A DNA stretch of 64,000 bases, taken from positions 40,369-104,368 of IMG/VR virus record IMGVR_UViG_3300033153_010326, one strand, 5' to 3'. The stretch comes from a virus. The notes below the pieces were generated by a model. It saw only the letters and a list, made by a program, of their open reading frames with translations. It was not told the DNA's origin and made no database searches. The position numbers and the translations under genes are program-made. This document shows positions 1 through 40,595 of this stretch, piece after piece (positions within the stretch are counted from its first letter, which is position 1; each line of letters starts with the position of its first letter).

Positions 1-2
1 AA

Positions 3-635
3 AAAGAGGTAATATTTTTTATAGATGAAATAGATACTATGGATTGGAAAATTTTAAAGATTTTAAATCCTATTATAGAACAGTTTGAAATTAATGGAAA
101 GAAAATAAAGCCCTTTGTATTTGCAAGTGCAACCATTAACAAGCATACTTTAATTAAAAATAATCCCGATACGCTTGACCGAATTCCACATCATATTCAA
201 TTTCATAGATACACTGCTAACGATATAAGTAAAATTATAACTCAATATAAAAATCATTTATATACTGATGAAAATATCCCTAAAGAAGCTATTGAAGTTA
301 TTTCTCATTCTTGTAAATTTAATCCTAGAACTGCTATAGCATTATTAGAAGATTATATTATAGAAAGAAATATGAATATAGTTTTAAAGAATAATAAGAT
401 TATAAGGAATGGTTTAAATGATATTGATATATCTGTCCTAAAAATATTAAACAACTCTACAAGGGCTATAGGGGCGAATTCTTTGGCTATGCAAGTAGGT
501 CTATCACAAAATCAATACATAAGAGAATTTGAACCTTTTTTAGTAGAATTTGGATATATTGCTCGTATTCCGTCAAGAATAATAACACAACTGGGAAGAA
601 TAACATTGGAGAAATTAAATGATAAAATTAACTAA
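3..635 (+). CDS. ruvB: RuvB-like Holliday junction branch-migration AAA+ ATPase (5' truncated)
   Basis: Frame open from base 3: Walker B IFFIDEID, sensor FASAT, NPR, C-terminal winged helix EPFLVEFGYIAR. Confidence 0.85.
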   Translation, partial: KEVIFFIDEIDTMDWKILKILNPIIEQFEINGKKIKPFVFASATINKHTLIKNNPDTLDRIPHHIQFHRYTANDISKIITQYKNHLYTDENIPKEAIEVISHSCKFNPRTAIALLEDYIIERNMNIVLKNNKIIRNGLNDIDISVLKILNNSTRAIGANSLAMQVGLSQNQYIREFEPFLVEFGYIARIPSRIITQLGRITLEKLNDKIN

Positions 636-1149
636 TAAAGAAAAATATTGGTTAGCAGGATTTATTGATGGTGATGGTTGCATAGCTATAAGATTAGGCT
701 ATATATCACATAAAAGAAAAAAATTTAAATTATATAAAACCTATAGTTATATTAGACCTTCGGTAGAAATAGGAAATACCGATAAAAATGTTATAAAAGA
801 AATTTCTAAATTATTAAATTCTAAATATAGAACTATAAAAAGAAAAAGAGGATATAAAAACTTTTATATTATTACATTATCAATTAAAAGCAGTATAGAA
901 TTATTAATCATTATTAAAAATTCATTAAAAATAAAAAAACCTCAAACAGAACTATGTTTACATTTATATAAAACTTTTAGTAATCATAAAAGAACAATTC
1001 AAGGAAGATTTAGAAAATTAGATAAAAGAACTATAAAAAAGAGGTTTTATTTATACAAACAATGTAAACTTTTAAATAAAAGAGGTAAACCAATAATAAA
1101 TAAAAATCAATTATTAAAAAAATTAAGAAAGGAAGGGTTAATAAAATGA
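619..1149 (+). CDS. Free-standing LAGLIDADG homing endonuclease
   Basis: YWLAGFIDGDGC motif; very basic protein. Confidence 0.9.
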   Translation: MIKLTNKEKYWLAGFIDGDGCIAIRLGYISHKRKKFKLYKTYSYIRPSVEIGNTDKNVIKEISKLLNSKYRTIKRKRGYKNFYIITLSIKSSIELLIIIKNSLKIKKPQTELCLHLYKTFSNHKRTIQGRFRKLDKRTIKKRFYLYKQCKLLNKRGKPIINKNQLLKKLRKEGLIK

Positions 1150-1535
1150 AGAAACAAAAAATAATCAAAACTTATTTTCCAACTTGTCCTAAAAATTTAA
1201 GAAAATATTTTAAAATTTCTTGGATAGATAAATCAATAACAGAATTAGAAGATATTTATAAAACAAACAATCGTAAGTTGAATAAACATTGTAAAACTGC
1301 TTTACTCTATTATATTCACTATAATTATAAAGAAATAGAACAATTTGCAATAGAAAGTTATACTTCTCCACTTTTATATTTGGCTTTTAATAAATGTTTA
1401 AACCTGCTTGAAAATATAGAATTGTATAGTTATTTATTACTTACAGCACTTTTAATTCTCAAAAAAACAGAAACTAGCAAAAAATTTCCAGAATTGAAAC
1501 TATATTGCGAAAGGAAATTAAATGATAGTATATAA
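1146..1535 (+). CDS. Hypothetical protein
   Basis: 129-aa ORF translationally coupled to neighbours. Confidence 0.6.
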   Translation: MKKQKIIKTYFPTCPKNLRKYFKISWIDKSITELEDIYKTNNRKLNKHCKTALLYYIHYNYKEIEQFAIESYTSPLLYLAFNKCLNLLENIELYSYLLLTALLILKKTETSKKFPELKLYCERKLNDSI

Positions 1536-1914
1536 ATGGGTACATAAAAAAGGCGATAAATATTATAGCTTAATGAATTTCGGCTTTACTAAACTATCGG
1601 AAGAATTTAAAACAAATCAACCTCCTTACGAACTTGGAAAGAGTTATAATAATATTCATAAAGAATATAAAAGTTTAATGCTACAATTTAGAAATAAAAA
1701 AGGATATATACCACAATATATTAAAAAAGGTTTTTATTTGTGGATAAATAAAAATACTAAGCCTAATAAAAAACAATTAGATAGAATGAAAATATTAGGA
1801 GGAGAGATTAATGCAGTATTAGAATGTTATATTTCTATAAATGATATACTTTCTTATGAAAGAGGAAATAACTGTATAAGAGTAAGCAAAATGAAAATAA
1901 TAAGGGAAATATGA
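1522..1914 (+). CDS. Hypothetical protein
   Basis: 130-aa ORF, AAGGA RBS. Confidence 0.65.
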   Translation: MIVYKWVHKKGDKYYSLMNFGFTKLSEEFKTNQPPYELGKSYNNIHKEYKSLMLQFRNKKGYIPQYIKKGFYLWINKNTKPNKKQLDRMKILGGEINAVLECYISINDILSYERGNNCIRVSKMKIIREI

Positions 1915-14832: not shown

Positions 14833-15068
14833 ACAAAGATACCATAAAAATAATAATGGAAAGAGTACAAGATGTTCCAATACAAAGAATATTAAACAAT
14901 AGGGAAGTATTGCTGGCTCAAAAAGCAGAGATAGAAAAACAATTAGAAAATATTGCTGAAATTATTAAAACAGCTAAAAAATTAGGTATAGATACTACTC
15001 TTAAACTTAAACAAGAAGATAAGAACTTTAAAAAAGGAGGAAATAAAAATGGGAAAGAAAATAGATAA
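14799..15068 (+). CDS. Coiled-coil hypothetical protein
   Basis: 89 aa, AGGAG RBS. Confidence 0.6.
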   Translation: MSKPYPKYEKVDKDTIKIIMERVQDVPIQRILNNREVLLAQKAEIEKQLENIAEIIKTAKKLGIDTTLKLKQEDKNFKKGGNKNGKENR

Positions 15069-15672
15069 AAATATGAATTTACATATTAAAATTGCTAAAG
15101 GTATAAAAGAACCTATTAATGTTTATACTATTCCAGAATATTTAAGAGAAAATGCTTTTATAAAAGAGGCAACTCCAGAGTCTCGAAGTTATATTATAGA
15201 AGCTAAAAAAGTTACTTATATAGATGGTGATGGTCGTTTAAGTAGAGTTAAAGCAGATTATTATGGAGATTGTGAAATTCCTTTTTCTGGATTGAATTCT
15301 AATTTAGAATATATGTCTATAGAAGGGGTGCTTAAAGGGAATAATGAAGAAGAATTAAACGAAATAAGAATAAAAATAGCAACAGTTATGGATGTAAAAG
15401 AAATAAATTTATTAAAATTATTAAGAAAGAAAACTATTTTTTCTTGGATTTTTAGAAAGAAAGAAAACAGATATTTTATTTTTATAAAAAGAGGGGTTCC
15501 TAGAGAATTAGCAAAAAGTATGGGATTTTCTGAAAAAATTATGTTAAGAACTCCGATTGTTAATCCTTGTCCAGTTAGTATGTCAGATACAACAAAAGGA
15601 ATAAAACCAAATACTTTAGCTTATGGAGTCTATGGTTACGAATCTTACATTATGGCATTAGTTGAGGTATAA
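15049..15672 (+). CDS. Possible shortened HK97-fold major-capsid-like protein
   Basis: E-loop-like beta hairpin, spine-helix-like segment, terminal YGVYGYESYIMAL strand (by eye only). Confidence 0.4.
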   Translation: MGKKIDKNMNLHIKIAKGIKEPINVYTIPEYLRENAFIKEATPESRSYIIEAKKVTYIDGDGRLSRVKADYYGDCEIPFSGLNSNLEYMSIEGVLKGNNEEELNEIRIKIATVMDVKEINLLKLLRKKTIFSWIFRKKENRYFIFIKRGVPRELAKSMGFSEKIMLRTPIVNPCPVSMSDTTKGIKPNTLAYGVYGYESYIMALVEV

Positions 15673-15924
15673 ATGACCAAAAAAACTTTTAAGATAAGAA
15701 CTCCTATTTGGAAGACTATGAGCGTAGGATTAGCAGAATATAAGTTAGCTGATATGAATTATGTGGAGATTATATATAGAGCTAATTCTGGAAGAAAATT
15801 ATTTCCAGATAAATATAGAATTTCTAAAGAGAAAGTTTTGAAGTATCCAACTCAGTTTGTAGGAGTAAATTTAAGAATTATTCCAATAGAAGATTTAGAA
15901 ATTGTAAAAAAAAGGAGGAAATGA
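15673..15924 (+). CDS. Hypothetical phage protein
   Basis: IRTPIWK.MSVGLA...IIPIEDLE. Confidence 0.6.
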   Translation: MTKKTFKIRTPIWKTMSVGLAEYKLADMNYVEIIYRANSGRKLFPDKYRISKEKVLKYPTQFVGVNLRIIPIEDLEIVKKRRK

Positions 15925-15925
15925 A

Positions 15926-16159
15926 ATGGGAAAGATTAATTATATAAGAGTATCGTCTGTAAAGGGACTTGTAAAGGAACTTGGTCGTAGAAGTGGTAAG
16001 GATTTTTTGGAAGAGTTAGATAGAGTAGTTGGAGAAATAGTAAAAAGAGCTTCTAAGAAAGAAAGTAAGAAGAAAACTTTAGATGCTTCAGATGTTAAAG
16101 TAATTGTAGATTCTATGGTAGTAGGAGTACCAGAAGAAATGGTTAAGGATTCTAAATAA
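15926..16159 (+). CDS. Histone-fold protein (bacterial Bd0055-like)
   Basis: alpha1 SSVKGLVKE, loop GRRSG, alpha2 DFLEELDRVVGEIVKRA, KKTLDASDV. Confidence 0.75.
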   Translation: MGKINYIRVSSVKGLVKELGRRSGKDFLEELDRVVGEIVKRASKKESKKKTLDASDVKVIVDSMVVGVPEEMVKDSK

Positions 16160-16162
16160 TTA

Positions 16163-16216
16163 AATATTGAGGGAGTTATTTGTAAGCGACCTGACCCCTC
16201 CCTCAGTATTATTTTT
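16163..16216 (+). terminator. Hairpin / probable terminator downstream of histone gene
   Basis: 13-bp stem AATATTGAGGGAG/CTCCCTCAGTATT followed by ATTTTT. Confidence 0.55.
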
Positions 16217-16228
16217 GGAGGATAAAAA

Positions 16229-16369
16229 ATGGCTAATAGAATAATTAGAATGAGAAAATGGAGAGCTTCTGGTCATAAGCATAAGAAGAATAAGAAGAGC
16301 GTAGCTGACAGAAAAATAATTAAGAATCTTCTTAAAAAACATACCATAAAGGAAGTTTATGGAATATAA
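16229..16369 (+). CDS. Small highly basic protein (46 aa, not in ORF track)
   Basis: GGAGG RBS; MANRIIRMRKWRASGHKHKKNKK... Confidence 0.55.
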   Translation: MANRIIRMRKWRASGHKHKKNKKSVADRKIIKNLLKKHTIKEVYGI

Positions 16370-18371
16370 AAAAATCATCTTATCAAAATTGCTTATCTAT
16401 TTAAAAAATAAAAAAGTAAAATTAAGTAGAGGTAATATAAAAACTTTAAAATGTCCCAAATGTGGTAAGACTGCTAATATTATTCCTAATGTTAATGAAA
16501 TTAATTGTTTCGTTTGTAAGCCAAAGAAATTGTTAAATCGTTACTGGAATCTTATAGATATAGTAAGAATAATAGAAAAAGATAAAGAAAGTTGGGATGA
16601 TGAAAAGATTTTACAATATTTAAAGGAATATTTAGATATTAAAGTTACTACAGAAAAAGATAATCAAGCTATTGAAGATATTTTAAATAAGTATCAAGAA
16701 TGGGGATTTGATTTAGTACCTATACATGCTAATGGTAAAGTTCCATTTGAAATAAAAGATTGGACTATTATACCTCATAAAGAAATATATGAATGGAAAA
16801 ATTGGCTAAATGATGGTCTTAATATAGGAGTTAAAACTGGTAAGAGAAGTAATATAACCGCCATTGACATAGATGCTTTAACTAAAGAAGAAAAGAAAGA
16901 AATAAGAACAAAGAAAATTTCAAAAGAAAGATTAGAAGAATTGATGCAATTAAGACAAGACAGATTAGATAAAGTTTATAAAGAAATGGGAGATATAGTA
17001 GGTAATCCTTTAGTACAACATAATCTTGGAGGTCATCATTTAATTTATCAATATGAAGAAGATATTCGCAAAACTTATATTAAGGTTCAAGATATTCATT
17101 TAGATATAGAAAATAATGGAGGTTATATTTTACTTGCTCCTTCAAAAGTAGGTAACAATGATTCTAGAAGTTTTAAAGAAAATACAACACCACCTAAAAT
17201 GCCTGACAAATTAAAACAATTTATATTATCAAAAATGAAACCTTCTAATAAAACTTATAGTGAAGGTATTATAGAGGATATAAAAACTGAAGATTTTAAA
17301 ATAGACCCAAAGAAATTTATGTTAAAAAATAATCAATTGGAAGGATGTTGTAATACTGAATTTATAAAACTTGGAGGGATTTTACGAAAGCAATTAAATA
17401 TGAAACAAACAGGTTATGTTCTTAATGTTTTAAATAAACATATTTTAGAAAAACCAATGGAATCAAAAATGGTAAGAGCAATGTTACAAGAGTTAAATAA
17501 ATATTCTCAATTTGACGAGACAGAATTAGCTCATAAAATTTTAGAATATTTAAAAGATTGTGTAGAAGAAGCTGGTAGAATAGAAATAGCTATGGCAGTA
17601 GTTGGAACAAATAGAGGAGAAGATAAAAAGAGAGTAGATAAAGCTCTTCAGTATTTAATTAGAGAGAAGCAAATTGTAAGAAATGGCAAAGCTTATGAAA
17701 TTATTGATGATTCGGAATGGACTGAAGAATTTATGAATACAGGAATTCCTATAGATTTTAAGATGCCTTATTTTTATGATACTATGTATTTTCACGTCGG
17801 AGACCTTCTATTAATTGGAGCTTCTCCTGCAATAGGCAAAACTCACATTTCAGTAAATATTATCAAACAATTAGTAGACCAAAATATTAAACCTTATTAT
17901 GTATCATTGGAAGGAGGGAGTCGCTACGCAAAAATTGCGAAACAATTAGGATTAAAAGAAGGAGATTTTTCAATTAAAGAAACTTCTAATCCTAATAAAA
18001 TAAAATTAAAAGATGGAGCAATAACTATTATAGATTGGATATGTCCTCGTAATTATGCAGAAACTGACAAAGTTTTACAAAATTTAGCTGACAAAGTAAG
18101 AGAAACTAAAGGAATATTAATAATTTTTGTTCAATTAAGAAAAAATGATACTTGGTTAGCTCCAGACCTTATTAATCAATTTCCATCATTTGCTTGTAGA
18201 TATACTTATGATAAAGAAGATGATGGAGAATTTGGGAGATTTCATATAGATAAATTGAGAGATGCTAAAGTTAAAATTAAGAATCATAAAATACCTTGTA
18301 AGTATTCATGGGATACTAAATTATTTAAGAGGGTGGATGAATTAGATGAAGATATTAAAGAGACTGGTTAA
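16359..18371 (+). CDS. Primase-helicase (Zn ribbon, bifunctional Prim-Pol, RecA-fold helicase)
   Basis: CPKC/CFVC; GKVP..W, NIGVKTG..AIDID, GGHH, GGYILLAPS; Walker A GASPAIGKT. Confidence 0.88.
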   Translation: MEYKKIILSKLLIYLKNKKVKLSRGNIKTLKCPKCGKTANIIPNVNEINCFVCKPKKLLNRYWNLIDIVRIIEKDKESWDDEKILQYLKEYLDIKVTTEKDNQAIEDILNKYQEWGFDLVPIHANGKVPFEIKDWTIIPHKEIYEWKNWLNDGLNIGVKTGKRSNITAIDIDALTKEEKKEIRTKKISKERLEELMQLRQDRLDKVYKEMGDIVGNPLVQHNLGGHHLIYQYEEDIRKTYIKVQDIHLDIENNGGYILLAPSKVGNNDSRSFKENTTPPKMPDKLKQFILSKMKPSNKTYSEGIIEDIKTEDFKIDPKKFMLKNNQLEGCCNTEFIKLGGILRKQLNMKQTGYVLNVLNKHILEKPMESKMVRAMLQELNKYSQFDETELAHKILEYLKDCVEEAGRIEIAMAVVGTNRGEDKKRVDKALQYLIREKQIVRNGKAYEIIDDSEWTEEFMNTGIPIDFKMPYFYDTMYFHVGDLLLIGASPAIGKTHISVNIIKQLVDQNIKPYYVSLEGGSRYAKIAKQLGLKEGDFSIKETSNPNKIKLKDGAITIIDWICPRNYAETDKVLQNLADKVRETKGILIIFVQLRKNDTWLAPDLINQFPSFACRYTYDKEDDGEFGRFHIDKLRDAKVKIKNHKIPCKYSWDTKLFKRVDELDEDIKETG

Positions 18372-40020: not shown

Positions 40021-40595
40021 TGAATAAACAAAATAAAAATTTTAATAAAAAATTAAGGTCAGGAGAAAGACAAGTTCGTAATGATTTACATAAAATGCAA
40101 TGGAATCAAAAATGGAGATATTGTAAAGCTTTGAATTATATTAAACAAGAAAATACCGTATTAGATATAGGTACAGGATGTGGTTCTGGAGCTTATATTC
40201 TTTCATTATTAGCAAAAAAAGTAATAGGAATAGATGATAGTGAAGAAGCTATAAAATTTGCTAAAATGAATTGGTCAACTTCCAATATAGAATTTTTTTG
40301 CCAAGATGCTTTAAATTTACAAGGTAAATACGATATTATAACAGCTTTTGAATTAATAGAACATATTAAAGATGATATAAAATTATTTATTAAATTTAAG
40401 CAACTTAATCCTAAATATATTATTATATCAGTTCCTCATATTTCAGTACCTTTATCTAGGTCTAAATGGCATTGGAAACATTATAAACAAAAAGAAATTA
40501 ATAAATTATTTAATAATATAGGATATAAAGTAATTGTTAATGATATAATAAAATTTGGAAATTTAGCTATTTTTGCAGTAGCAGAAAGGAAATAA
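40020..40595 (+). CDS. Class I SAM methyltransferase
   Basis: VLDIGTGCGSG, FELIEH. Confidence 0.9.
   Translation: MNKQNKNFNKKLRSGERQVRNDLHKMQWNQKWRYCKALNYIKQENTVLDIGTGCGSGAYILSLLAKKVIGIDDSEEAIKFAKMNWSTSNIEFFCQDALNLQGKYDIITAFELIEHIKDDIKLFIKFKQLNPKYIIISVPHISVPLSRSKWHWKHYKQKEINKLFNNIGYKVIVNDIIKFGNLAIFAVAERK

Follow-up and report, generated by a model that had tools for sequence, protein, structure and literature searches.

The DNA analysed, referred to below as the window, is a stretch of 64,000 nucleotides that corresponds to positions 40,369 to 104,368 of the IMG/VR virus record IMGVR_UViG_3300033153_010326. The record is 104,368 bp long, carries direct terminal repeats and is rated 100% complete in IMG/VR; the window has a G+C content of 26% and no tRNA genes were detected in it. 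Positions 15926 to 16159 of the plus strand (stop codon included) contain an open reading frame (ORF) for a protein of 77 amino acids, which a preliminary description had presented as a phage-encoded histone-fold protein with exactly these coordinates and this length, and the ORF list confirms both. This structural gene, called the histone gene in the following, is present as a single copy in the phage genome. A Shine-Dalgarno sequence AGGAGG, also part of the preliminary description, is located at positions 15913 to 15918 (plus strand), 7 nt ahead of the ATG and within the 3' end of an upstream ORF for 83 amino acids (15673 to 15924, plus strand). The TGA codon of this upstream ORF ends 1 nt ahead of the histone ATG, suggesting that the two genes are tightly (translationally) coupled. 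Two genes upstream of the histone gene, an ORF for 207 amino acids is found at positions 15049 to 15672 (plus strand), for which neither a Pfam nor a PHROG match was obtained.

On the downstream side, positions 16163 to 16210 (plus strand) can form a hairpin with a stem of 13 bp and a loop of 22 nt, followed by a T-rich stretch (UAUUUUU), and this element may serve as an intrinsic terminator or attenuator that separates the histone gene from the helicase operon. The hairpin that had been announced behind the gene is therefore present, with a folding energy of -17.6 kcal/mol (z = -2.3), and 7 of 200 shuffled sequences folded equally well; its stem sequence has no second copy in the window and was absent from all of 100 shuffles. 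A comparison with Rfam gave no match for the hairpin, and it was not listed by a simple terminator scan, which missed it because of its long loop. Between the hairpin and the next large gene, a K/R-rich and very basic ORF for 46 amino acids (16229 to 16369, plus strand) is preceded by its own GGAGG; no family match was found for it and it overlaps the start of the primase-helicase gene by 11 nt. The primase-helicase (670 amino acids; 16359 to 18371, plus strand) combines an N-terminal Prim-Pol domain with a DnaB-like C-terminal domain (DnaB_C), so that the earlier placement of the histone gene just ahead of it is correct, with the 46-aa ORF as the only gene in between.

A contig from a related phage (L027, 27% G+C) has its gene order in common with the window from about 10.8 kb to 19.2 kb. 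At the syntenic position it encodes a protein that is 79% identical to the 77-aa protein, is preceded by AAGGAGG and is adjoined by the helicase gene. The upstream 83-aa ORF and the basic 46-aa ORF are 83% and 84% identical in this contig, respectively, and the 207-aa ORF is 58% conserved. The stem of the hairpin is kept as well, with a single change from U.G to C-G, and the loop differs at several positions. When both histone genes are compared, differences at the first, second and third codon positions number 18, 7 and 21, and the amino acid replacements are mostly conservative. The L027 protein (P0002), which is the closest relative, ends at residue 70, and the last 7 residues of the 77-aa protein are therefore not conserved. 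With a syntenic relative of 79% identity, second codon positions that are the least changed and more than 100 homologous sequence clusters, the histone ORF is a real gene.

When the 77-aa protein was employed as single query, no match was obtained in PHROGs, PADLOC or NCBIfam and nothing convincing in the PDB. In Pfam there was no hit at E values up to 10, and thus no match to PF00808 (CBFD_NFYB_HMF), DUF1931 (PF09123) or HU/IHF models; also, the histone models of Pfam matched none of the 21 family members tested. Searches by tblastn of a phage GenBank collection with the histone and with the primase-helicase gave no match either. From large protein collections, 10 close relatives and 13 representatives at the 50% identity level were recovered, and a search with a profile of 21 sequences extended the family to 111 clusters of about 50–120 amino acids, none of them with a Pfam domain. 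Among neighbors in the ESM Atlas, clusters dominated by Uroviricota (viral) come first, and the weaker rows are clusters in which 13–18% of the members carry PF00808 or DUF1931. The 77-aa protein thus belongs to an unannotated, mostly viral or phage-borne family with over 100 sequence clusters. Its members in the alignment of 111 sequences (A3) have a median length of 68 amino acids, with a median of 13 residues after T51, and a median net charge of +7, compared with +5 for the window protein. One member, P0127 (250 amino acids), is the sole long form found, and its histone-fold domain is at the C-terminus, behind a fused N-terminal region of about 185 amino acids that is rich in Cys and Arg and has no match in Pfam.

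Whereas single-sequence searches gave nothing meaningful, the relationship to histones came to light with family profiles only, which were searched against 177,635 distinct PDB sequences. As the family alignment was deepened, matches to short histones grew stronger. With the deepest profile (A3), the histone HTkC from Thermococcus kodakarensis (9f2c) was detected with an E value of 1.3e-6 over residues 2–56 of 59, HLp from Leptospira perolatii (9qt0) with 2.8e-3 and HBb (Bd0055) from Bdellovibrio bacteriovorus (8cmp and 8fvx) with 0.03–0.04. These four top rows are all alpha3 histones, and only one further row appeared, a designed protein at an E value of 0.21. By sequence profile, a relationship of the family to alpha3 histones is therefore detectable for HTkC, HLp and HBb alike.

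Structure predictions were consistent with this result once the alignment was deep enough. A first AF2 model built on 10 sequences had a pLDDT of 61 and formed a compact bundle like those of AAA+ lid domains; it was set aside in favor of the model built on the 111 sequences of A3, which has a pLDDT of 85.3 and a pTM of 0.67, with helices at residues 9–18, 25–44 and 54–65. In the latter model the chain is open and extended, the shape found inside histone dimers, and with its topology of helix, loop, long helix, loop and helix the model superposes on solved histones. In a Foldseek search of the PDB the best 50 rows are all histone folds, led by HLp and HBb, with an rmsd of 1.4 Å over 52 aligned columns and a probability of 1.00 for HLp. 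When Foldseek candidates were realigned with VIA-align, HBb (8fvx) reached a Z score of 7.0 with an rmsd of 1.8 Å over 60 of 63 residues. A search of 48,161 representative chains that is independent of Foldseek placed HBb (8cmp) first, with a Z score of 6.6 and an rmsd of 1.1 Å over 55 of 58 residues. The five best rows include HLp and HTkC, and almost all of the best 40 were histone folds, with MHF and Dpb3/Dpb4 lower down at a Z score of 4.5. Z scores of 6–7 are modest, as expected for a helical domain of 60 residues.

It might be argued that the protein is no functional histone at all and forms a small monomeric three-helix bundle (helix-strand-helix, similar to an AAA+ lid) with an unrelated role, its resemblance to histones being ancient or convergent. 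The compact model from the shallow alignment, for which ClpA, Lon and MCM lid domains are the top Foldseek rows, would fit such a proposal, and so would the failure of Pfam histone models to detect the protein. However, the shallow model has the low pLDDT of 61 whereas the model from the deep alignment (pLDDT 85) is an open histone fold, the profile independently matches alpha3 histones only, and the loop residues that putatively touch DNA are the most conserved of all, so that we consider this explanation very improbable. Because an unanimous structural hit list and an independent sequence-profile result agree, the predicted histone fold can be regarded with high confidence as secure, and the identity proposed in the preliminary description is borne out. 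Judged by profile and by model, the protein is of the alpha3 type and related to the archaeal and bacterial face-to-face histones HTkC and HLp and to HBb from Bdellovibrio.

According to the model, helix alpha1 comprises residues 9–18 (positions 15950 to 15979; these and the following coordinates refer to the plus strand) and is followed by loop L1 with residues 19–24 (G-R-R-S-G; 15980 to 15997). The central helix alpha2 (residues 25–44; 15998 to 16057) contains the conserved residues F27, L31 and D32 and, with a modeled length of 20 residues, is shorter than in nucleosomal histones. This short alpha2, together with HBb as the top structural match, is in agreement with the resemblance to the Bd0055 type that had been noted from the letters. 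Loop L2 (residues 45–53; 16058 to 16084) includes K49-K50-T51-L52-D53, which align to R-K-T of histones. Helix alpha3 (residues 54–65; 16085 to 16120) is modeled with 12 residues at lower confidence, the mean pLDDT for residues 61–70 being 71, and as most relatives end about 13 residues after T51 they have room for a short helix only. In alpha3 histones as defined by Schwab et al. in 2024, this helix is cut down to 3–4 residues. The C-terminal tail (residues 66–77; 16121 to 16156) is not conserved, is predicted to be disordered with a pLDDT below 50 at residues 74–77, and is cut short in the L027 protein P0002. Aligning the protein with HTkC and HBb requires one-residue gaps in the query, both in loop 1 and where alpha2 ends.

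Crystals of HBb with DNA revealed contacts by T8, S9, K10 and K12 of alpha1, by T23, S24 and A25 at L1 and the start of alpha2, by K52 and T53 of L2, and by R57 (PMC11317129). In an HMM alignment these residues correspond to V9, S10, S11, K13, S23, G24, K25, K50, T51 and S55 of the window protein, respectively. The peripheral contacts T8, K10 and R57 of HBb have no match in the window protein, and the paired-loop site and the alpha1 lysine are retained and fall on the columns with the highest conservation in the family: R22, T51 and L52 are each kept in 110 of the 111 sequences, F27 and K50 in 108, D53 in 100, K49 in 99 and D32 in 97, and K or R occupies position 13 in 108 of 110. Also S10 lies at the position of a contact residue, that of S9. 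Judged from the alignment, putative DNA-contact positions in alpha1, L1 and L2 are thus kept with respect to K12, the loop-1 region, K52 and T53 of HBb. Loop 1 of the family follows the pattern G-K/R-R-V/S-S/G, according to which G24 is replaced by S in some relatives, and it corresponds to R-V-S of HTkC. Moreover, it is similar to the first loop of HMfB, where an arginine reaches into the minor groove.

The preliminary description had equated the segment KKTLDASDV with the histone motif RKT(V/I)xxxD. The first half of this proposal was upheld, as KKT aligns with RKT of HTkC, HLp and HBb. The second half was not, for D56, which takes the Asp position of RxTxxxxD, is an aspartate in only 3 of the 111 members, window protein included, and V, L or I in 105 of them. 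With K49-x-T51 in place of R-x-T and with the Asp being this rare, the window protein lacks the Arg-Asp clamp of RxTxxxxD, and given V, L or I at the Asp position in 105 of 111 relatives the clamp is not a feature of the family.

In the window, the histone gene forms part of a plus-strand block that also contains genes for a metallophosphoesterase, the primase-helicase, a RuvC-like resolvase, a UvsX-like recombinase and a family B DNA polymerase, the latter being only about 25% identical to T4-like gp43; the tail genes are on the opposite strand and far from the histone gene. On contig L028, whose relationship is more remote (56% identity), the helicase gene comes first and the histone gene stands immediately behind it, so that the order is inverted. 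On this contig, positions 1 to 1881 (plus strand) encode the helicase C-terminal domain preceded in one frame by an intein-like insert with LAGLIDADG motifs; the insert ends with HN followed by T at the P-loop position, and a radical-SAM/TRAM-like N-terminal stretch stands before it. The frame may belong to an intein-bearing helicase, with the contig being chimeric, or it may be an unusual fusion.

Family members were further located on 14 IMG/VR contigs with G+C contents of 42–60%, whose flanks show no homolog of any other window protein. Six of these 14 (L004, L005, L008, L011, L012 and L014) carry, at a distance of 0–3.2 kb, genes for a RepO-like initiator and a RecE-like exonuclease (phrog_412), the exonuclease gene being directly adjacent to the histone gene in L004 and L005, and in three others a ParB-like gene is found 2.4–3.4 kb upstream. 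Metagenome-assembled genomes (MAGs) of bacteria, mostly Ignavibacteriaceae and Melioribacteraceae, yielded 11 loci with a match, one of them weak and partial. At 9 of the 10 clear MAG loci, a gene for a Sak4-like recombinase is either the immediate neighbor of the histone gene or separated from it by one small gene, within runs of small genes of phage type. On contigs L016 to L025 from Ignavibacteria and other MAGs, early regions of prophage-like character, in many cases close to the end of the contig, repeatedly show a conserved trio, in which a 72-aa ORF overlaps the histone-fold gene by 4 nt and a gene for a Sak4-like recombinase of 368 amino acids is the third member. A core chromosomal histone of cellular origin was considered for the MAG loci and rejected, as no more than 3 of the 151 genomes sampled from the order of genome G001 had a match; for the same reason the gene is best described as sporadic prophage cargo.

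The coupled upstream ORF was also considered as encoding a partner for a heterodimer and was rejected. Comparison of the 83-aa ORF with the family by hhalign gave a probability of 0.1, indicating no histone-fold relationship, and the coupled upstream ORFs of the Ignavibacteria loci are not histone-fold paralogs either. Since the phage genome has no second histone-fold gene and the upstream ORF coupled to the first shows no relationship, a homodimer is to be expected if the protein dimerizes.

On these grounds, the product of the histone gene is probably a homodimeric architectural protein of the replication/recombination module that would bind and bend double-stranded DNA independently of sequence. 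Two copies would most likely pair as a histone 'handshake' homodimer, and each end of the dimer would present a paired L1/L2 site (R22 together with K49-K50-T51) plus the N-terminus of alpha1 (S10 and K13). These loop sites may meet the phosphate backbone of the DNA minor groove, so that double-stranded DNA would be bound regardless of its sequence and then bent or compacted. The strong ribosome-binding site and the terminator-like hairpin behind the gene suggest that the protein might be made in quantity, and in this way a protein of the phage itself would organize phage DNA during replication and recombination. The strong ribosome-binding site, the hairpin of its own and the place inside a replication/recombination module all point to an architectural protein, and a role in replication and recombination is suggested by the fact that the gene is found in such a module here and in unrelated phages and lies apart from the virion genes. 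Since early regions of phages are dense in genes, a neighborhood of this kind is by itself weak functional evidence, and the partner gene next to the histone gene also changes from one phage group to another.

The same neighborhoods could be read in another way, namely that the histone-fold dimer acts as an accessory subunit through protein-protein contacts with the primase-helicase, the RecE-like exonuclease or the Sak4 and UvsX recombinases, and would anchor or stimulate these enzymes on branched or double-stranded DNA, by analogy to eukaryotic MHF1/2 with FANCM or to Dpb3/Dpb4 with polymerase epsilon. Consistent with such a subunit, the helicase gene is adjacent in both gene orders, several prophage loci have the Sak4-like recombinase gene as immediate neighbor of the histone gene, as 2 phages have the RecE-like exonuclease gene, and MHF and Dpb3/4 do appear among the lower structural matches. 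However, the adjacent partner gene differs among phage groups, which is more easily reconciled with a general role in DNA architecture than with a single dedicated partner, and the best matches in structure as well as in sequence are free-standing DNA-binding histones and not MHF or Dpb proteins, making a dedicated accessory subunit an unlikely explanation.

The preliminary description proposed that the protein coats phage DNA, protects it from nucleases or perturbs the host nucleoid. In such a role it would cover the incoming or replicating phage genome against nucleases of the host, or attach to the nucleoid of the host and thereby switch it off. A basic protein with conserved predicted DNA-contact residues, encoded behind a strong ribosome-binding site in a region of early type, could serve such a purpose, and one prophage locus (L024) carries an anti-restriction-type gene in addition. 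The absence of any PADLOC match speaks against this view, and so does the position of the gene outside the virion genes, which makes packaging of the protein together with the DNA unlikely; moreover, the evidence would apply to phage DNA as target just as well as to host DNA. Protection of the genome or takeover of the host is therefore regarded as rather improbable, and the architectural role in replication and recombination is the reading preferred here.

A broader proposal can be advanced only tentatively. Short histone-fold proteins might be a general and so far unrecognized component of phage replication/recombination modules and not mere packers of DNA, an idea we find somewhat doubtful. 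In that case they might act as architectural cofactors that prepare DNA for, or stimulate, primase-helicases and recombinases of the RecE, Sak4 and UvsX types, which is likewise a doubtful extrapolation, and the comparison would be with IHF/HU for phage lambda and MHF for FANCM. If the link to recombination modules is functional, phage histones would gain a concrete and testable role.

Short histones of bacteria and archaea have been recognized only recently, and their phage-borne relatives are known from computer surveys only; in the literature, no experimental study of any phage alpha3 histone was found. The locus described here provides a clean case, with a single-copy gene in a complete genome, a confident model and conserved putative DNA-contact residues, and it adds a recurrent location close to or adjoining genes for replication and recombination, as seen in phages and prophages that are not related to each other. 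As Pfam, PHROGs and NCBIfam contain no matching model, annotation pipelines call members of the family 'hypothetical', and a profile made from the 111-sequence alignment would label them. Among the proteins with which phages are known to shape DNA, those of the HU/IHF type, such as TF1 of SPO1, are small, basic and abundant architectural DNA-binding dimers tied to replication and transcription. Their fold is entirely different from that predicted for the window protein.

The closest counterpart in structure is HBb, the 'bacterial dimer' alpha3 histone of B. bacteriovorus (PDB 8cmp, 8fvx and 9ezz; Hocher 2023, PMC10627809; Hu 2024, PMC11317129). It is the best structural match (Z scores of 6.6–7.0, rmsd of 1.1–1.8 Å over 55–60 residues), both proteins consist of one small histone fold in which alpha2 is short, and the DNA-contacting K-T of loop 2, the lysine of alpha1 and a Ser/Thr in loop 1 are retained. 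In contrast, sequence identity is only 20–26% with a profile E value of 0.03, and the window protein has Lys for the Arg of RKT, no Asp clamp, a conserved Arg in loop 1 (R22) and, in the model, a longer alpha3 followed by a tail. Furthermore, its gene is carried by a phage whereas the gene for HBb is essential and chromosomal. The best sequence-profile matches are HTkC, a face-to-face (FtF) alpha3 histone with a crystal structure (9f2c; PMC11390915), and HLp, a tetrameric FtF alpha3 histone that wraps DNA (PDB 9qt0-2; PMC12701072). Both have a loop 1 of the R-V-S type and K-T in loop 2 in common with the window protein, and rmsd values are 1.4–1.7 Å, whereas the alignment of the window protein reveals neither the residues for an FtF tetramer nor the RxTxxxxD clamp.

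Two surveys have already catalogued histones from phages. Schwab et al. in 2024 defined alpha3 histones including 'phage histones', exemplified by A0A2E7QIQ9, in which the alpha3 fold is combined with a C-terminal tetramerization helix, RxTxxxD is absent and K10, G17, R30 and K49 are conserved (PMC11390915). A survey of IMG/VR published in hLife in 2025 reported 289 non-redundant histone-fold proteins of Caudoviricetes in seven clusters, among them the Bd0055-like BBVHFP, the face-to-face VFFHFP, the head-to-head VHHHFP and the tail-to-tail VTTHFP (PMC13681535). Like the window protein, the phage histones of Schwab and the VTTHFP, VHHHFP and BBVHFP clusters are phage-encoded alpha3 folds that are said to lack the full RxTxxxD motif, and the spacing K-7-G-13-R-19-K of the former is close to K13-G20-R33-K50 of the window protein. 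Both the window protein and most of its relatives differ from the phage histones of Schwab and from VTTHFP by the absence of a C-terminal tetramerization helix; in the model and by comparison with L027, the window protein has in its place only a non-conserved tail of 12 residues at low confidence. Four members of the family (P0037, P0064, P0068 and P0076) do carry the same extra C-terminal helical region. Together with the K/G/R/K spacing, these four members suggest that the family, which was compared by published descriptions only, is probably the same as or a sister to the groups of Schwab and hLife, and that the window protein represents a short form without the extra helix. The gene at positions 15926 to 16159 is therefore not a new kind of gene but a well-supported further example of the phage histones that were catalogued computationally in 2024–2025.
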